DNA from: Candidatus Moranbacteria bacterium GW2011_GWC2_37_8
GTDB lineage: Bacteria; Patescibacteriota; Minisyncoccia; Moranbacterales; GWC2-37-73
DNA length: 37,947 nt
Reading direction: 5' to 3'
NCBI GenBank assembly: GCA_000992165.1
Contig: LBTS01000002.1
Location: forward strand, 1-37,947
Position numbers and translations under genes: made by a program. Below, piece after piece: positions 7,752-29,212 of this stretch (position 1 is its first letter; each line of letters begins with the position of its first letter). The notes beneath the pieces were generated by a model that was not told the origin of the DNA, did not search any database, and was given only the letters and a program-made list of their open reading frames with translations.

Positions 7752-7817
7752 ATGAACAGGACATTAGCTTTTTAGGCCATAGCTTCTTAGCTCATGGAAA
7801 TATTTATTTGTATTTTT

Positions 7818-7846
7818 ATTGTATATCATGAATTAGCAGTCGTCAA
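7818..7846 (-). promoter_or_regulatory. sigma70 promoter of hrcA-grpE-dnaK, overlapping CIRCE
   Basis: Minus strand TTGACG-17 nt-TACAAT. Confidence 0.8.
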
Positions 7847-7859
7847 GTCCGAGTGCTAA
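7833..7859. promoter_or_regulatory. CIRCE operator (HrcA binding site)
   Basis: TTAGCAGTC-N9-GAGTGCTAA, one mismatch to TTAGCACTC-N9-GAGTGCTAA. Confidence 0.95.
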
Positions 7860-7885: not shown

Positions 7886-7923
7886 AAAAAAAGAAGGTTG
7901 ACTGAGTTACTCAGCCAACCTTC
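7886..7923 (-). terminator. intrinsic terminator of the Cys-rich small-ORF cluster
   Basis: GAAGGTTG-a-CTGAG-tta-CTCAG-c-CAACCTTC with T7 on the minus strand. Confidence 0.8.
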
Positions 7924-7942
7924 CCGTTGCGCACAATGCGCC

Positions 7943-8209
7943 CTACTTCATCTCTATTACCGGTTTGCAGCATCCCGATCCGCTTCCCTTTTGTCCTTCA
8001 CATACCGGGCATATCTCGCCCCCGTAGATACGCGGAAGCCTCATCTCGACAGTTTCATCCCTGACAGAGCAGTAAACCGTGAAAAACGGACGCTCTTCCT
8101 GGAAGCGACTACTGTCCAGAATCTCCTTCGAACTCTGAGGAGTTCTGCCGATATTGAAAGGCCTCGAGGACTGAACGTGGGATGGCACAGACTTAACACC
8201 ACATGACAT
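7943..8209 (-). CDS. small Cys-rich hypothetical protein (88 aa), possible zinc ribbon
   Basis: AAAGGAG SD before ATG 8209 (alternative GTG 8263 also has an SD); C...CPVC...CC. Confidence 0.6.
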   Translation of the reverse strand: MSCGVKSVPSHVQSSRPFNIGRTPQSSKEILDSSRFQEERPFFTVYCSVRDETVEMRLPRIYGGEICPVCEGQKGSGSGCCKPVIEMK

Positions 8210-9283: not shown

Positions 9284-10192
9284 ATGAAAACAGTTGAATT
9301 CAAAAATATAACATGGATAGATTTTTCTGATCCAAGTGCGGATGATGTTCTTTATCTTCAAGAAAATTTTGACATTCATCCTATTGCTATTGAAGAATTT
9401 GTCACACCTACATATAGAGCAAAAGCCACGCAATATAATAATTGCATCTTCCTGACGATCCACGTTCCCCTGTATGATGCCAAAACCAGAACAACTTTCC
9501 CAGGCGAATTGGATATTGTAGTGACAAAAGACCACCTAATCACCGGGCACAATAAAGAAATTGTAGAACTTAATACTTTTTTTGCTTCACTGGAAGGCAG
9601 CGAAGGCAAACGACGAATTTATATGAGCAAAAGTCCTGCTCACCTTCTATATAGCATTCTCGAAATGCTTTTGGAATCGTGTTTTCCGCGCATTGACCAT
9701 ATTCATGAAAAACTTATCAACATTGAGGAACAAGTTTTCAATGGCAAAGAAAAAGAAATGGTTTTTGAAATTTCAATCGTAAAACGTGACATTCTTAATT
9801 TTCGCCGAACATTGAAACCACAGCGACATATCATTGAATCATTGGGGCAAATGAAAACTGATTTGGTTCCTTCGGAACTTGCTTTATATTTCCAAGATTT
9901 AACAGGAACAAACATCCGACTATGGAACGCGCTGGAAAGCAACAAGGAAACAATTGAATCCATGGAAGAAACAAACAATTCACTGCTTTCAAATAAATTA
10001 AACTTCACCATGAAAGTTCTTACTGTTTTTTCGGCAGTAATGATGCCTATGACAGTTTATTCAAACATACTAGCAATGAGCGCAGACATCCCTTTTGGGA
10101 AAAGTCCACACGCCTTCGCTATTCATTCTTCAATAATGCTTTTGATGTCCGTATTCACCATACTCTTCTTTAAAGCGAAGAAATGGCTGTAA
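9284..10192 (+). CDS. corA: CorA-family divalent cation transporter
   Basis: WIDFSDP, FDIHPIAIEE, LYFQDL, MKVLTVFS, two C-terminal TM helices; GMN motif appears as AMS. Confidence 0.9.
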   Translation: MKTVEFKNITWIDFSDPSADDVLYLQENFDIHPIAIEEFVTPTYRAKATQYNNCIFLTIHVPLYDAKTRTTFPGELDIVVTKDHLITGHNKEIVELNTFFASLEGSEGKRRIYMSKSPAHLLYSILEMLLESCFPRIDHIHEKLINIEEQVFNGKEKEMVFEISIVKRDILNFRRTLKPQRHIIESLGQMKTDLVPSELALYFQDLTGTNIRLWNALESNKETIESMEETNNSLLSNKLNFTMKVLTVFSAVMMPMTVYSNILAMSADIPFGKSPHAFAIHSSIMLLMSVFTILFFKAKKWL

Positions 10193-10194
10193 AC

Positions 10195-10267
10195 AGCTTT
10201 TTAGGCATTAGCTTTTTAGCTTCTTAGAAAAATACCAACTAATCGCAGAATTATTTTAGCTTTTTAG
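10195..10267. repeat. TTAGCTTY octamer array (left arm)
   Basis: AGCTTTTTAGGCATTAGCTTTTTAGCTTCTTAG ... TTAGCTTTTTAG. Confidence 0.8.
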
Positions 10268-10275
10268 AAATCTTT

Positions 10276-10632
10276 ATGATCAATTCTTATAAGGATCTTA
10301 TCGTATGGCAAAGATCCATGGAATTAGTTGTTGAAATATACAGGCTTTCTGACTTATTTCCAAAGTCAGAAATATATGGTATTGTGTCTCAAATGCGGAG
10401 AGCTGCTGTTTCTATACCATCAAATATAGCAGAAGGAAGAAAAAGGAGCACAAGAAAGGATTTCAGACAATTTATCATCATTGCTTATGCAAGTGCATCT
10501 GAATTAGAAACGCAGATTGAAATCTCTAAAAGATTAAATTTTATTAAATTAGAAGAATATTTAAAAACTGATGCTTTATTACTGGAAACTATAAAAATGT
10601 TAAATAAAATGATTTCCACATTGAAAAACTAG
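10276..10632 (+). CDS. four-helix-bundle protein (23S rRNA intervening-sequence protein / TIGR02436-like)
   Basis: SYKDLIVWQRS, FPKSEIYGIVSQMRRAAVSIPSNIAEG, ASASELETQ. Confidence 0.95.
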   Translation: MINSYKDLIVWQRSMELVVEIYRLSDLFPKSEIYGIVSQMRRAAVSIPSNIAEGRKRSTRKDFRQFIIIAYASASELETQIEISKRLNFIKLEEYLKTDALLLETIKMLNKMISTLKN

Positions 10633-10660
10633 AGCCAGCAATCGGAATTAAAATTTAAAC

Positions 10661-10687
10661 CTAAGAAGCTAAGGCCTAATAAGCTAG
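10661..10687. repeat. inverted CTAAGAAG octamer array (right arm)
   Basis: CTAAGAAGCTAAGGCCTAATAAGCTAG; 10661-10672 is the exact reverse complement of 10216-10227. Confidence 0.8.
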
Positions 10688-10693
10688 AAATAT

Positions 10694-12121
10694 ATGCTTT
10701 ACCTATACAATACACTATCAAAATCTAAGGAAATTTTTAACTCTCTCCATCCCGGTAAGGTCGGGATGTATAGCTGTGGACCGACCGTGTATGGCTATGT
10801 TCATATTGGAAACATTCGGGCATATCTTTTGTCTGACACTATCAGGCGATATTTGGAATACATTGGATATGAAGTACGCTTAATTAAAAATATTACCGAC
10901 GTCGGACATCTTACTGCTGACGACGTTGCGCAAGGAGATAGCGGCGAAGACAAAATGCTAGCAGCAGCGCTCAAAGAAAAAAAGACGCCGGAAGAAATTG
11001 CGAAATTTTATGAAACATATTTCAAAAACGTTGAGAAGCAGCTTAACATCATTCCTGCACAATATTTTCCCCGAGCAACCGCTCATGTGCCTCAGATGAT
11101 TAAGATTATTGAAGGATTGATTGAAAAAGGATTTGCTTATGAAAAGAATGGTAACGTGTTTTTTGATGTTACAAAATTTGAAGATTATGGAGAACTTTCC
11201 GGCAACACCTTGGAAAATTTGAAAGTTGGAGCGCGCCTTGAAGAACATCCTGATAAGAATAATCCTTGGGATTTTGCACTATGGCTAAAAGCTCCATCTG
11301 AACATATTTTAAAATGGGATTCTCCTTGGTCAATTGGCTATCCAGGTTGGCATATTGAATGCAGCGCCATGAGCACTGAATATTTAGGAAACACGATCGA
11401 CATCCATACCGGAGGTGAAGATAATATTTTTCCACACCATGAAGCAGAGATTGCTCAAACCGAATGTTTCACTGGACAGAAATATGTAAAGTATTGGGTG
11501 CATGGACGTCACCTCTTGATGAATGGTGAAAAAATGAGCAAGTCAAAAGGAAATCTATACAAACTTGAAGATATCATTGAAAAAGGATTTTCCGCCATGG
11601 ATTTGCGTTTGCTTTTCCTTTCTTCACACCATCGTTCACAAATGGATTTTTCATGGGAAGCTTTGGCGCAGGCACACAAGAATCTGCAGCGAATTAATGA
11701 TTTCGTTTTCAACCTTGAAGTAATTTCAAAAACAGAAAAAGATGGAGATTCTTTCGACATAGTCTCATATCGTGAAAAATTTGAAGCTGCAATGGACGAC
11801 GACCTCAATACTCCTCTCTCATTAGCTGTCCTATATGAAATGATTACAAATATCAATAAGCAAATTGCAGAAGATAAACTTTCAGCAACCGATGCGAAAA
11901 ACGCCTTAGCATTTTGGAAAAAAATAAATTCTGTTTTTGGATTTGTCTTGCAGGGTCAAGCTGAGATTCCTCAAGAAATAAAAGATTTGGTTAGACAGCG
12001 AGAACTTGCTCGTGAAGGAAAAGATTTCAAAAAATCAGATGAACTTAGAGCTTTGATTGAAAAACATGGTTTTATTGTGGAAGATTCAAAAGACGGACCA
12101 ATCGTAAAACCAGCTTCTTAG
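10694..12121 (+). CDS. cysS: cysteine--tRNA ligase
   Basis: [41 protein letters not shown]. Confidence 0.99.
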
Positions 12122-12158
12122 GCATTAGCTTTTTAGGCATAGCTTCTTAGAAAAAAAG

Positions 12159-12198
12159 AAAAGACGAGAGCCACGCAGTTACGCAACTCTCGTCTTTT
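12159..12198. terminator. bidirectional terminator
   Basis: AAAAGACGAGAG ... CTCTCGTCTTTT between cysS and a convergent small ORF. Confidence 0.8.
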
Positions 12199-12220
12199 TG
12201 ATTCTTGCGACACTTGTGGC

Positions 12221-12425
12221 TTAGCGCCTAAAAACTGAACGAATACCCAGAAACGCCAGTCCGCCTAGCACCCCAACGGCCGCGAATACAGGTAAAGCGG
12301 GAGCACCTACAGAAGTTGCAGCAAGCAATCCAACCCCCCTTTGCGCCAAGAGCAAACGAAGACGCTGCGCCGACACCCGCCCCAGATCCACCATACCTCA
12401 CTACCCTTCCTAAACCTTTTTTCAT
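12221..12425 (-). pseudogene. glycine-zipper membrane peptide (67 aa), frameshifted at a G6 run
   Basis: TAAGGAG SD and TTGACA-N17-CAAGAT promoter; removing one G at 12334-12339 gives a coherent Gly/Ala-rich hydrophobic peptide ending at TAA 12221. Confidence 0.6.
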
Positions 12426-25525: not shown

Positions 25526-27667
25526 CTAGTTCTCGCCGCGAGTTTTGTTTATCAAATTTCGCACTTCATCCAAATTTACATTCGGACGTTGGCGGGGTTT
25601 GAATTTTTTTGGAGCAATATGCTGCATTTGAGAAAGTGACATCGGACGATCTTGCGGCTCATATGCTTTGTGCTCAATTTTTCTTTCAGGCAATTCCTGC
25701 TTTTTCTCGACAGGCTTTGCATATTGAGGCTTGCTTTGTGCATATGGACGAGCAGCTGCTGCAGGATTAATATTTGCAGATTGCTGAGGTTGAGGAGCAG
25801 CAATCTGACTAGTAGGGTTTGCTTCTTGCCTTTCCTCTTGCTCACGCTGCATCTTTCTTTCCTGATTAAGTTTTTCCTTGGCGGTCATCCTTTGATAATC
25901 TTTCAAACAGTCTTTGCAAAAAGTTGGCCGCTTTCCATCGGGCTGAAACGGAACTTGAATCTTGTCACCGCACATGTCGCAAATTGCCTCAAACATCGGC
26001 TTTGGAGGCTCTAGTTGATTATATTCTCCCAAATCATCTACTGGCGCAGGGGCATGTCTCAAATCAGCATGCTGCTCCATCACTTTTTGAGGTTCAGAAG
26101 CTCTTGGAGGCTCAGGTGCGCTCACAGGGGCAGTTGGCTGCGTAAATTGCTGAGTTTGCTGGGATATAGGCGCTTGAGGCTCTTGTTTTGGACTAGCAGG
26201 GCTTGCTTGAAATGCGGGAGTTGGGGCCGCTGGCCGCTGAACTGGCGCTGAAGCTATGGGCTGCCTAGCAGGCGCAAAATTTGGATTCTGCGATGGTTGC
26301 TGTTGTTGATAAACGGATGCTCCTTGATATGGCGATGCCGATGTGGTTGGAGCAGCATTTACAGTTGGAAATCCCCCAACCGGCATCACGCCAGACCATC
26401 TCGCAATCTTGTCTTCAACTTCTTCCTTGCTTGACGCATAACGCTCGCGAGAAGCAGCAATAATCTTTTCCTCATTTTCCATTGTGTCTTCAATATATAT
26501 CGGCGGCAAAACTTGAGCCGAAAATGCATCTCCGGCAATACCGTCAATCATCAGTTTCAAATAGATATTATATTTCGGCAAATTCACAATATCATTTTGC
26601 ACAAATACAGGCGCAAATTCTTTTTCCAAAAATTCCGCATCAGTGGCGCCAACTCGAAATGAAATGATTGTGCCGGCATTACCAAAAATAGCATCGCGCA
26701 CTTTTTCATCAATCTGCGTGATGTATTGATTTGCCAAAATAAGGTTCAAACGATATTTTCGAGCTTCAGACAAAATATTGGCAAAAGATTCCGTTGCAAA
26801 GTTTTGAAATTCATCTACGTATAAGTAAAAGTCTTTTCGATCTTCTTCTGCGATATCAACGCGTCCCATAGCAGCCAGCTGAATTTTCGTAATCATCATA
26901 GCTCCAAGCAAGGCGCCATTGTCTTCACCGATGCGTCCCTTGGAAAGATTGATAATCAAAATCTTCTGGGTGTCCATCGCATTGCGAATATCAAAAGAAG
27001 ATTGAGTCTGACCAACGATATTTCTAATCAGGGAACTGGAGAGAAACTGTCCGACCTTGTTTTGAATCGGAGAAACAACTTCCTGCAAAACCTTATCGCT
27101 CCATTTCGGAAATTCATCAACCCAAAATTGCCTGATTACCGGGTCGGTAACTTTGTCTACAACTTTTTCGCGATATTTTTTGTCCACCAAAATTCTGGTT
27201 ACGCCCAAGAGTGTGCTGCCTGGATATTCCAAAAGTGCCAAAATTGCATTACGCAAAATGTATTCCAATCGTGGTCCCCAAGAATCTGCCCATATTTTTT
27301 TGAACACACCAATAAGACCCGATGCCACCAAATGGCGATAATCAGGATCAACAGATTCCATCACATTGAAAGCCAATGGAAAATTTTGGTCGGCAGGGTT
27401 CAGATAAATAACGTCATTGATGCGATTGGCTGGAATTGATTTCAAGAGTTTTTCCGCCGTGTCGCCGTGCGGATCAATATAACAAATTCCATGACCATTT
27501 CGAATATCCTGAACAACCAAATTCTCCAAGAGATTGGTTTTTCCCATACCGGTCTTTCCAATAATGTACATGTGCCTGGTCCTGTCATCTGTCTTGATTC
27601 CGAAAACCCTTTCCTGATTTCTGAAGTTTGTTTTTGCAAAAAATGCAATTTCGTTATTTTGCGCCAT
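25526..27667 (-). CDS. VirD4/TraD-like (TrwB-type) ATPase with Pro/Gln linker and CxxC-x17-CxxC domain
   Basis: GKTGMGKT, IDPHGD, YVDEFQNF, LSEARKY; CDMC...VPFQPDGKRPTFCKDC. Confidence 0.92.
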   Translation of the reverse strand: MAQNNEIAFFAKTNFRNQERVFGIKTDDRTRHMYIIGKTGMGKTNLLENLVVQDIRNGHGICYIDPHGDTAEKLLKSIPANRINDVIYLNPADQNFPLAFNVMESVDPDYRHLVASGLIGVFKKIWADSWGPRLEYILRNAILALLEYPGSTLLGVTRILVDKKYREKVVDKVTDPVIRQFWVDEFPKWSDKVLQEVVSPIQNKVGQFLSSSLIRNIVGQTQSSFDIRNAMDTQKILIINLSKGRIGEDNGALLGAMMITKIQLAAMGRVDIAEEDRKDFYLYVDEFQNFATESFANILSEARKYRLNLILANQYITQIDEKVRDAIFGNAGTIISFRVGATDAEFLEKEFAPVFVQNDIVNLPKYNIYLKLMIDGIAGDAFSAQVLPPIYIEDTMENEEKIIAASRERYASSKEEVEDKIARWSGVMPVGGFPTVNAAPTTSASPYQGASVYQQQQPSQNPNFAPARQPIASAPVQRPAAPTPAFQASPASPKQEPQAPISQQTQQFTQPTAPVSAPEPPRASEPQKVMEQHADLRHAPAPVDDLGEYNQLEPPKPMFEAICDMCGDKIQVPFQPDGKRPTFCKDCLKDYQRMTAKEKLNQERKMQREQEERQEANPTSQIAAPQPQQSANINPAAAARPYAQSKPQYAKPVEKKQELPERKIEHKAYEPQDRPMSLSQMQHIAPKKFKPRQRPNVNLDEVRNLINKTRGEN

Positions 27668-27668
27668 A

Positions 27669-27793
27669 CCCGGTAGTAGAAATTTGAATGAGCGTTGCTC
27701 AAAAAAATTATCTTTTTTGAAATTTTATATTACCCGATGAAAAAAATAAAATAGAGATTTAACTTTTTTATATTTCAAATTTTCACTACCGGG
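27669..27793. mobile_element. 125-bp MITE-like element with 20-bp TIRs and a 4-bp target duplication
   Basis: CCCGGTAGTAGAAATTTGAA / TTCAAATTTTCACTACCGGG (18/20), with CATA on both flanks. Confidence 0.75.
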
Positions 27794-27825
27794 CATACTA
27801 ACGTTGTAGTATTTAAAAAATTACT

Positions 27826-27926
27826 TGAATCATGATTTAGGAATTAGGAGTTAGAGTTTAGGAATTAGTAGTTATGCTTGATTCATAATTCATAATTCTT
27901 GTCTTTTGATTCTTGATTCATAATTC
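27826..27926. repeat. heptamer arrays (TTAGGAA-type / TTCATAA-type)
   Basis: TGAATCATGATTTAGGAATTAGGAGTTAGAGTTTAGGAATTAG ... TTCATAATTCATAATTCTTG...TTCTTGATTCATAATTC. Confidence 0.7.
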
Positions 27927-27931
27927 GCCAT

Positions 27932-29212
27932 CTATTCAATCGGTAGATTTGAAGGAGCTCCGCCACGTTTTGCTTCCACGCGGTTGAGGGATGGAGCCAT
28001 CACATTCATATCAGGCAAGTGAAACAACGTGGCAAGTTCTTCAGAACTAAATGTTAACATTTCGCCATCTCTATTTCTAGTTCGGTAACGTCTTAGAAGT
28101 TTTCGTTGACGATATCTCAAGCGCGACTTTTGAAAAACATAATTTGCAAAAGTTTTAGAATTATTGTCTGGCTTAAGACTATTCATGTTGTCGTCACCAA
28201 ATTGTTTGAGAGATCCCCAAATAGAAGAAACGCCAAGAGATTTGTCGAAATTTTCCCTGCGTCCAACATATACAAATCTTCCCTTGGTTGAAAACTGCAG
28301 CTTCCCAAGATTATCCTCCACAGCTTTCAGCGCATCGCGCTCGCCAGGTGAAAGTCGAATGTCCAAAGGTTGTTCTTCTTTTTTCTTAACGGCTGCAAAT
28401 TCCACAGGGCCATTTAATCCAGCAAAAAGATTACTAAAAATATCCTTAACGTCTCTCCAGAAGCGTTCGAAAGGTCCTTCTTCGATTTTTTCTCTACCCT
28501 TTAGTTTATCAGTAAATTTCTTTCCTGCTTTAGCAACCCATCCGGGAGAATGAGGGGCTATCACCCACTGAAGCCACAAGTGTTGCCCGGGACCAATTTT
28601 TCCCATTGTTTCAATAAGACCAGCCAAAGGATCAATCATGGTACCGGTTATATCCTCTTGAAATTTTTGATAAGTGCGAATTGGAAAAAATTCATCTTTC
28701 TTTGTAAATACAACATCTGCTCCCCATAAATCCCACTGATTATTTGGAATCAAGACAGGCACATCATCAACATAATCCGGGACTTCAATAATTTCAACAT
28801 CTGGATATTGAGCATATAGATGAGCCTCAACCAGATTTCTATACTTTTTCATGGTGCGAATATATATATGCACCGTTCCTTGATCGCTTGCAATTTCCAA
28901 ACTCATATAATCAGCAAACATACCACTAATGTATTCTTCAGCGATATCAAAACCTTTTTCGACTCCAGCAAAACCTGCAAAAAGACCTTCCATTGGTTTT
29001 GGACTTTTTTCAATATTCTTAGGTGGGATAATTTCCAAGAGCACCCATTTGGCAGCGCCCCAATATGCATCTTGCACATGGCGAAGCCAATAAATTTTGA
29101 ACATATAAAAGAAAAGCGGCGGCAAAGCTATGAACCATACATAGTTCATAGCTTGCCAAGCCGTTTTCATGGAAGAAACAATTTCTAAAATTGAACTTGA
29201 AATAATGTCCAT
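27932..29212 (-). CDS. conserved CPR membrane-anchored protein upstream of the VirD4-like ATPase (DUF8128-like)
   Basis: N-terminal TM, LEIIPP, SLEIAS, LYAQYPDVEI, PIRTY, EELATLFHLP, PSNLP; start moved to ATG 29212. Confidence 0.8.
   Translation of the reverse strand: MDIISSSILEIVSSMKTAWQAMNYVWFIALPPLFFYMFKIYWLRHVQDAYWGAAKWVLLEIIPPKNIEKSPKPMEGLFAGFAGVEKGFDIAEEYISGMFADYMSLEIASDQGTVHIYIRTMKKYRNLVEAHLYAQYPDVEIIEVPDYVDDVPVLIPNNQWDLWGADVVFTKKDEFFPIRTYQKFQEDITGTMIDPLAGLIETMGKIGPGQHLWLQWVIAPHSPGWVAKAGKKFTDKLKGREKIEEGPFERFWRDVKDIFSNLFAGLNGPVEFAAVKKKEEQPLDIRLSPGERDALKAVEDNLGKLQFSTKGRFVYVGRRENFDKSLGVSSIWGSLKQFGDDNMNSLKPDNNSKTFANYVFQKSRLRYRQRKLLRRYRTRNRDGEMLTFSSEELATLFHLPDMNVMAPSLNRVEAKRGGAPSNLPIE

Follow-up and report, generated by a model that had tools for sequence, protein, structure and literature searches.

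A four-helix-bundle gene between mirror-image heptamer arrays in the corA-cysS interval of a Candidatus Moranbacteria genome: a probable operon-lodged cassette of the rRNA intervening-sequence type

The main finding of this work concerns a short segment of the genome of Candidatus Moranbacteria bacterium GW2011_GWC2_37_8, located at positions 10195-10685 of the window, that is, of the whole stretch of 37,947 nucleotides that was analyzed (contig LBTS01000002.1). The segment carries a gene whose 118-aa product is a four-helix-bundle protein (10276-10632, + strand; PF05635 23S_rRNA_IVP; TIGR02436). The interpretation that we favor, and that we consider probable with some reservation, is that it constitutes a cassette of the type known from the intervening sequences (IVS) of ribosomal RNA (rRNA), lodged here in an operon: a PF05635 gene between mirror-image arrays with a YAG core, whose arms would pair in the transcript and which would be gained, lost or replaced as one unit. 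We observed the architecture itself, its recurrence around the gene family, the sense orientation of the gene, the presence and absence of the cassette at one site, purifying selection on the open reading frame (ORF), gene-less copies of the arms and a trend in array density across genomes. The genome under study (G000; 826 kb in 48 contigs, approximately 37% G+C, 79.8% complete) is compared with relatives, which bear other G numbers; C numbers designate contigs of G000, the window being contig C2, and L numbers designate loci.

The cassette is 491 bp long and fills the gap between the stop codon of corA (10190-10192) and the ATG of cysS (10694). Its 5' or left arm (10195-10227, + strand), which begins 3 nt past the corA stop, consists of four tandem units of the TTAGCTTN or TTAGGCN type, and its 3' or right arm (10658-10687, + strand; CCTAAGAAGCTAAGGCCTAATAAGCT), a mirror of the left one, ends 7-9 nt ahead of the cysS ATG. 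Together they form an imperfect inverted repeat of 28 nt (10195-10222 / 10658-10685), complementary at 24 of 28 positions (86%) and with 435 nt between the arms, which includes an exact core pair of 12/12 positions (10216-10227 / 10661-10672). Units of the AGCTTTTTAG type begin at 10195, 10210, 10218 and 10258. An extra proximal unit pair (TTTTAGCTTTTTAGAAA; 10254-10270, + strand) is 94% like 10214-10230 and ends 5 nt before the ATG of the gene; its copy at 10256-10267 could also pair with the right-hand core (92%). The gene between corA and cysS, its inverted arrays and the exact core were all recovered as described in the original prediction, made from the DNA letters. The arrays of the octamer TTAGCTTY that it reported are present as arrays, but their units mix 8 nt (TTAGCTTN) and 7 nt (TTAGGCN), the period being mostly 7 across the family, and the bare octamer is mildly enriched in the window (10 matches against 5.2 ± 2.3 expected, approximately 2-fold; 2 of 100 shuffles reach 10).

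An inverted-flank score, defined as the complementarity between the 110-nt flanks of a gene, was calculated for 771 genes of the genome. The gene in the window scored 36, which corresponds to rank 9 (median 17, 95th percentile 24), with a low direct-repeat score of 18, and a second PF05635 gene of the same genome ranked 12, also with a low direct-repeat score. Most of the genes ranked higher have housekeeping functions and lie between copies of self-palindromic elements, for which the inverted and the direct scores are both high. The neighboring cysS is likewise bracketed (inverted score 37). On inspection, the right arm (10658-10685) is about equally complementary to the left arm and to another arm at the cysS stop (12111-12150). 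It could thus pair with either, the small gene being looped out in the first case and cysS in the second.

The same arrangement recurs around the gene family. The genome has four PF05635 matches, one of them at a contig end, and the three that can be evaluated are all bracketed by inverted arrays, each with a different unit (TTAGCTTN, GTAACTN and AATTGTTT). Besides the copy in the window, one lies between the genes for the small and large subunits of a hydrogenase on C7, with GTAACTN heptamer arms, and another between a pilin-domain gene and nusA on C1, with AATTGTTT arms. The family was found in 36 of 41 genomes of the same order, the maximum being 13 copies in a genome; Bacteroides thetaiotaomicron, included as a control, has it as well. 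As a mismatched control, the flank of each gene was scored against flanks of other loci. For 31 loci in relatives the median inverted score was 32 with own flanks and 19 with mismatched ones; 19/31 exceeded the mismatched 95th percentile, and the own downstream flank was the best partner in 14/31. A second set, obtained by a search with an alignment of eight sequences and restricted to one genome per species, comprised 80 loci from many Patescibacteria classes, Acidobacteriota, Clostridia, Fibrobacter, Chloroflexi, Ignavibacteria and others. For 77 of them the own-flank and mismatched medians were 32 and 17, with 46/77 above the mismatched 95th percentile; the same-locus direct score had a median of 16, and 21/77 lay beyond the mismatched 99th percentile. 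Similarly, 31 of 32 viral contigs gave medians of 37 and 16.5, with 24/31 above the mismatched 95th percentile. Arrays with periods of 6-9 occur in the 80 loci at 0.78 and 0.94 per 100-nt bin directly beside the gene, compared with approximately 0.06 in the other bins up to ±1.5 kb, and the bracket is also found around the gene in high-G+C Acidobacteriota. As the original prediction anticipated, flanking inverted arrays are far commoner at paralogs and relatives of this gene than at other genes.

The arms comprise about four units (medians 3.9 and 4.4), which vary among loci, yet agree within a locus. Of 122 arrays, 81 have a period of 7, 31 one of 8 and 10 one of 9, and the unit, anchored on AG, gives the matrix Y-A-G-notA-T. 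TAG is present in 99 of the 122 unit consensuses, compared with 23 in shuffled units, but TAA (4 against 9.3) and TGA (6 against 23) are depleted, which ruled out the idea that the arrays act as three-frame stop insulators. Unit for unit, one arm is the mirror image of the other: identity in the best register was 0.82, a value somewhat inflated by picking the register for best fit, against 0.645 at ±7-8 nt, and the best cross-arm identity exceeded that of the within-arm shift in 43/52 loci. At columns that vary within an arm, 68% matched across arms, against 39% when shifted by one period. The 5' arm is G+T-rich in 46/52 loci; a polarity of the arms relative to the gene was discarded as an explanation, since this is a strand-symmetric property of inverted repeats and says nothing on gene orientation.

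The protein encoded between the arms matches the whole PF05635 profile (residues 6-111 on profile positions 1-106; E = 6.1e-39, 133 bits, cut-off 33.8), as well as TIGR02436, 'four helix bundle protein' (E = 4.3e-38, 129.9 bits, cut-off 24). Its nearest solved structures are PDB 2gsc (E = 1.5e-24) and 2rld, both with five chains in the deposition. Avd, the accessory protein of diversity-generating retroelements (DGRs), has a related four-helix-bundle fold according to the accessible part of PMC10053308, and the protein weakly matches the Avd equivalog NF033474. Identity with Avd was nevertheless rejected, since this match (22.1 bits) is far under the cut-off of 80 and no reverse transcriptase (PF00078) was found in the genome, which is 79.8% complete. 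In four cassettes whose arms are of the TTAGCTT type, each from a different genus, the ratio of nonsynonymous to synonymous substitution (dN/dS) of the ORF is 0.03-0.055, with synonymous sites saturated (proportion of synonymous differences, pS, 0.65-0.74); the ORF is under strong purifying selection. The G+C content of the cassette is 0.27-0.31, compared with 0.34-0.42 beside it.

In the 80-locus set the upstream neighbor is co-oriented with the gene in 66/74 cases, the downstream neighbor in 59/71 and both in 50/65, and no promoter-like or terminator-like site was found in the window between corA, the gene and cysS. Therefore, read-through transcription is the simplest reading. When the region 10186-10696 was folded as RNA, a closing stem between the two arms was obtained in both the minimum free energy and the centroid structures. 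The genome also has an rnc gene. In the relative G039, a sense-oriented PF05635 gene lies inside the 23S rRNA gene, surrounded by an inverted repeat of 26 nt (77%) with a loop of 441 nt. The same 23S rRNA gene also contains a group I intron (L210:1630-1861; RF00028, 61.4 bits).

The adjacency of corA and cysS is conserved in the order, and the empty alleles that the original prediction proposed to look for do exist: 8 of 26 junctions are filled by the gene and 18, in as many relatives, are empty. Five of the empty junctions are tight (0-15 nt), six contain array hairpins whose units are unrelated, and the remainder are occupied by other spacers. A ninth filled site, in G022, lies outside these 26 junctions. 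Filled and empty states both occur within the genera g7, g10, g11 and g13. The gene varies jointly with its arms, and not in step with the genes on either side. In G002, corA is 95% identical but the gene only 69%, with different arms, and in G022 cysS is 56% identical but the gene 81%, with the same TTAGCTT-type arms. Arms of this type accompany a single type of cassette (80-86% protein identity) in four genera, across which the arm cores are invariant and the adjacent spacers not alignable. In the relative G010, approximately 800 nt of other DNA (L053 700-1500), with no four-helix-bundle match and no arrays, lie between corA and cysS.

Arms of the same family also occur without the gene. The two solo arms previously noted at the cysS stop and in the hrcA leader were found at 12111-12150 (+ strand), in left-arm orientation and with its first TAG (12119-12121) being the cysS stop codon, and at 7764-7792 (+ strand), 13 nt upstream of the start of hrcA, which is on the - strand. 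The arm family is present at 33 intergenic sites of the genome, mostly no more than 15 nt from a gene end, and six of these are short inverted pairs. Arrays with a period of 7 or 8 number 244 at a TRF score of at least 36, or 29.5 per 100 kb. In groundwater metagenome contigs, the depth of the left arm exceeds that of its flanks 15-90 times, and the gene body occurs in single copy; one contig, with a depth close to that of the genome itself, has the structure arm, 24 nt, arm. A weak joint of 9767 to 11011 (side 22) in the metagenome contigs probably comes from another organism. The gene for DNA ligase on C16 (ligA, 25774-28068, 764 aa) has several in-frame arrays of AGTAACY-type heptamers, which in translation give VTSNQQPVTS, VTSNSSLVTG and similar runs, and its coding region holds inverted array pairs 333-660 nt apart; insertion or expansion of arrays within genes is thus possible.

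Array density was surveyed in 28 relatives, with 20-80 kb sampled from each and arrays beside four-helix-bundle genes left out. It amounted to 2.1 arrays per 100 kb (5 in 239 kb) in genomes without a four-helix-bundle gene, 9.9 in those with 1-2 and 16.6 in those with at least 3, i.e., genomes of the order without the gene have about 8 times fewer arrays than those with at least three copies. Density rises with that of the four-helix-bundle genes (Spearman rho 0.52), with a nominal p of 0.0045 that is overstated because the genomes are related. Counts of Y1_Tnp, which was found in 24/41 genomes, did not correlate with array density (rho 0.17), and G035, with three Y1_Tnp genes and no four-helix-bundle gene, has no array in 39 kb. 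A Y1_Tnp/RAYT transposase was thus dismissed as the mobilizer, since it does not track the arrays. In G000 there is one weak match, of the IS200-like Y1_Tnp type (31.9 bits, profile 41-119 only) in an ORF of 212 aa on C3 (3642-4280; L165:1291-1929, - strand) that is itself flanked by arrays (inverted 27, direct 39). Similar partial Y1_Tnp matches of approximately 220-250 aa recur in many relatives and may represent a diverged RAYT-like family.

We hypothesize that the cassette would be transcribed by read-through from corA and that, as the predicted fold and the analogy with rRNA IVS suggest, its arms probably pair into a stem of about 23-28 bp that closes the cassette and leaves the gene in the loop. 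This stem would be cut by RNase III, as it is in the Coxiella 23S IVS, and through such cutting the insertion would be tolerated inside the operon. At the DNA level, the unit would spread or be exchanged as one piece, and would leave or seed gene-less array hairpins. Several of our results weigh against this interpretation. Selection on an RNA stem alone would predict a G·U bias, and the mismatches between arms have no bias of the G·U type in the sense transcript (43 against 52, p = 0.41), 135/230 of them being transversions; the lack of bias therefore speaks against such selection. In the window cassette the two arms disagree at the variable position of every unit, and the overall z-score of the fold is modest (-1.72). 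In addition, the arms hardly pair in two of the nine corA-cysS cassettes (scores of 21 in G011 and 17 in G015), and 31/77 of the many-phyla loci fail to exceed the mismatched 95th percentile. With respect to mobility, no recent transposition was detected. In the 112 loci compared, no two near-identical cassettes stood in different surroundings: wherever two genes were at least 80% identical, the flanks were common to both, and the apparent exception, L116/L118, has the same context with a diverged next gene. No target-site duplication was visible by eye when filled and empty corA-cysS sites were compared, and none of the metagenome contigs joins corA directly to cysS. Since the gene body, unlike the arm, is single-copy in these contigs, the window cassette is not itself spreading now. 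Finally, the in-frame arrays of ligA point to a DNA-level process, against a purely RNA-level reading.

A different role for the arms, which we regard as possible but rather unlikely, is that they are mainly candidate protein-binding arrays, in which the pentameric protein would recognize phased YAG units, one per subunit, on RNA or single-stranded DNA, arm pairing being secondary. Such binding would regulate the expression of the protein itself, or maintain and spread the arrays, and (UUAGCUUN)4-5 would be the candidate target. Judged from the sequence, the conserved YAG core with a free neighboring position looks like a phased binding site, and the pentameric protein would be a candidate binder. 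The unit core is kept across phyla while other positions vary, and the TAG enrichment is not a stop-codon effect. There are about four units per arm, the closest solved relatives have five chains, and the S23p protein is described as homopentameric in the accessible text of PMC4990558. Also consistent with binding are the invariance of the arm cores in four genera combined with the mismatched variable unit position, the missing G·U bias and the fact that array density follows gene density and not Y1_Tnp. However, units differ widely among loci and paralogs, some of them lacking YAG (the C1 copy and several viral loci), and the genome has more array families than four-helix-bundle genes; the cross-genome correlation, whose nominal p is inflated by kinship, would be equally expected if genes and arrays were parts of one invading element. 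A broader form of this idea, which we likewise hold as doubtful, is that the pentamer of the four-helix-bundle 'IVS protein' would be the trans-acting partner of heptamer arrays, one YAG unit per subunit, and the gene cassette the autonomous member that maintains or spreads the gene-less hairpins; hence the near absence of arrays from genomes without the gene.

Alternatively, the arms could belong to the target, the gene having been inserted into the loop of a pre-existing intergenic array hairpin. Gene-less array hairpins are abundant (the 244 arrays of period 7/8 and the six short inverted pairs of the arm family), they are present at some empty corA-cysS sites, and arm units differ from locus to locus. 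Nevertheless, we consider this very unlikely, since TTAGCTT arms are tied to one cassette type in four genera, the empty sites of congeners hold unrelated arrays or nothing, and the same bracket is present in high-G+C Acidobacteriota and viral contigs, with arrays concentrated at the gene within ±1.5 kb. Intercistronic hairpins are common regulators, and this fact, the purifying selection on the gene and its co-orientation with the neighbors would all suit a host gene of the ordinary kind beside the usual regulatory hairpins (terminator, attenuator or mRNA-stabilizing stem), with no cassette at all. An ordinary gene is expected in stable synteny without empty sites, and the opposite was observed: its presence varies within genera at one site, and its identities are out of step with those of the flanks, whose G+C is higher. 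Moreover, each flank has one arm, so a hairpin must span the gene (inverted 36 against direct 18), no T-tract terminator follows either arm, and the same build is found inside the 23S rRNA gene of G039 and in viral contigs, all of which makes this explanation improbable. As for chance similarity of low-complexity A+T-rich intergenic DNA, the mere 2-fold enrichment of the octamer in the window and the richness of the genome in short tandem repeats would favor it. It was rejected by the rank (9 of 771 genes), by the flank controls, in which matched flanks are far above mismatched ones in three independent locus sets (relatives, many phyla and viral), and by the array enrichment of at least 13-fold in the bins next to the gene, and its probability is negligible.

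The preferred reading, that of an IVS-type cassette, takes as its model the ORF-bearing 23S rRNA IVS of Coxiella burnetii and, as cited there, of Leptospira (PMC4990558). In the accessible part of that paper, the Coxiella IVS in helix 45 has a 28-bp stem, an S23p ORF in the loop and 2-3 GACAGAT heptamers before the start codon; it is cut in mid-stem by RNase III in vitro, S23p is a homopentameric toroid, and the ORF is decaying and probably unexpressed. As far as that text describes them, both systems have an S23p/PF05635 gene in the loop, a terminal inverted-repeat stem (about 28 bp there, 28 nt here), tandem heptamers of variable copy number within the 5' arm, immediately upstream of the start codon, a similar size (428-444 nt against 491 bp here), a G+C content below that of the host and a sporadic distribution that suggests horizontal transfer. 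The likeness to an intervening sequence that the original prediction drew is borne out in these features and in the G039 gene inside 23S rRNA. In contrast to the Coxiella IVS as described there, the present cassette lies between two protein-coding genes and not in a 23S/16S rRNA helix, its ORF is under strong purifying selection and not decaying, and cutting by RNase III, demonstrated there, would apply here by analogy. Its arms, moreover, belong to a family dispersed at 33 sites of the genome. Insertions in the rRNA of the candidate phyla radiation include 23S_rRNA_IVP ORFs, according to the accessible part of 10.1101/2024.02.27.582315.

Intergenic direct repeats of the heptamer TAACTGA were described in Beggiatoaceae, Cyanobacteria and Bacteroidetes (MacGregor, 2015; PMC4679880); in its accessible text that work deals with one heptamer, in direct repeats except for one inverted case, and suggests that S1, Csp or CsrA bind it. 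So described, these repeats resemble our arrays in being tandem 7-mers in 2-6 copies, nearly all intergenic, that abut start codons or overlap ORF ends, and in their patchy set of phyla and unexplained function. The text of PMC4679880 has no 'four helix', '23S' or 'S23' and thus makes no link to the gene family. The TAACTGA-like unit GTAACTN forms the arms of the C7 cassette and many gene-less arrays of the present genome, but the arrays described here differ in being mirrored pairs around a specific gene family. REP/BIME sequences with RAYT transposases, the Correia elements of Neisseria and the palindromic elements of Rickettsia are short multi-copy intergenic palindromes that form mRNA hairpins; Correia hairpins are RNase III substrates, and Rickettsia palindromic elements can sit in frame inside genes. 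The in-frame arrays in ligA of G000 are similar to the latter, and the many dispersed intergenic copies of the terminal repeats (33 sites) resemble REP/MITE-like elements. Unlike REP, Correia or Rickettsia elements, however, the arms are tandem 7-8-mers of varying unit and a gene-bearing form exists; unlike REP/MITE-like elements, they have no target-site duplication visible by eye and are not tracked by Y1_Tnp.

Ever since the description of rRNA intervening sequences, the S23p/IVS protein family has lacked a known function, and the intergenic heptamer arrays of bacteria are likewise unexplained. Our results indicate that the two belong together: in viral contigs and in many phyla, and in operons as well as rRNA, the gene is normally packaged between mirror-image arrays. 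Published work already covers the form lodged in rRNA, including its heptamers, and also intergenic heptamer arrays without a link to the gene family. The element is therefore not undescribed in the full sense in which the original prediction used the word: its rRNA-lodged form is published, and what was not found in print is the operon-lodged, family-wide form, a literature search of sources other than subscription journals having returned no paper in which PF05635 genes located outside rRNA are connected with inverted heptamer arrays at their flanks. These arrays also matter for annotation, since they supply stop codons (as in cysS), fill intercistronic spacers and sit in frame inside ligA.

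With regard to the surroundings of the cassette, corA (9284-10192, + strand) matches PF01544 (E = 3e-51) and cysS (10694-12121, + strand) matches PF01406 (E = 1.4e-102). The first terminator-like site downstream of corA is a G+C-rich hairpin after cysS (12159-12198, no strand assigned). An Rfam scan of the window gave no rRNA or other family at gathering scores, and chance-level matches only at E up to 1. Local peaks of G+C were observed at 7900-8200 (0.53) and 12100-12400 (0.51), compared with approximately 0.35-0.40 around them; both have overlapping ORFs on the two strands and no Rfam match. Upstream of hrcA, 40 nt beyond the solo array arm, a near-perfect inverted repeat (7833-7859; TTAGCAGTC-N9-GAGTGCTAA) resembles the CIRCE operator of HrcA. 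A second, longer dispersed element of approximately 100 nt, with GAATTTT/AAAATTC heptamers around a TGTTTTAAACA center, flanks several housekeeping genes of G000 on both sides and was located at C10 24082-25692, C31 10211-10672, C25 14757-15293 and C44 4475-4783.

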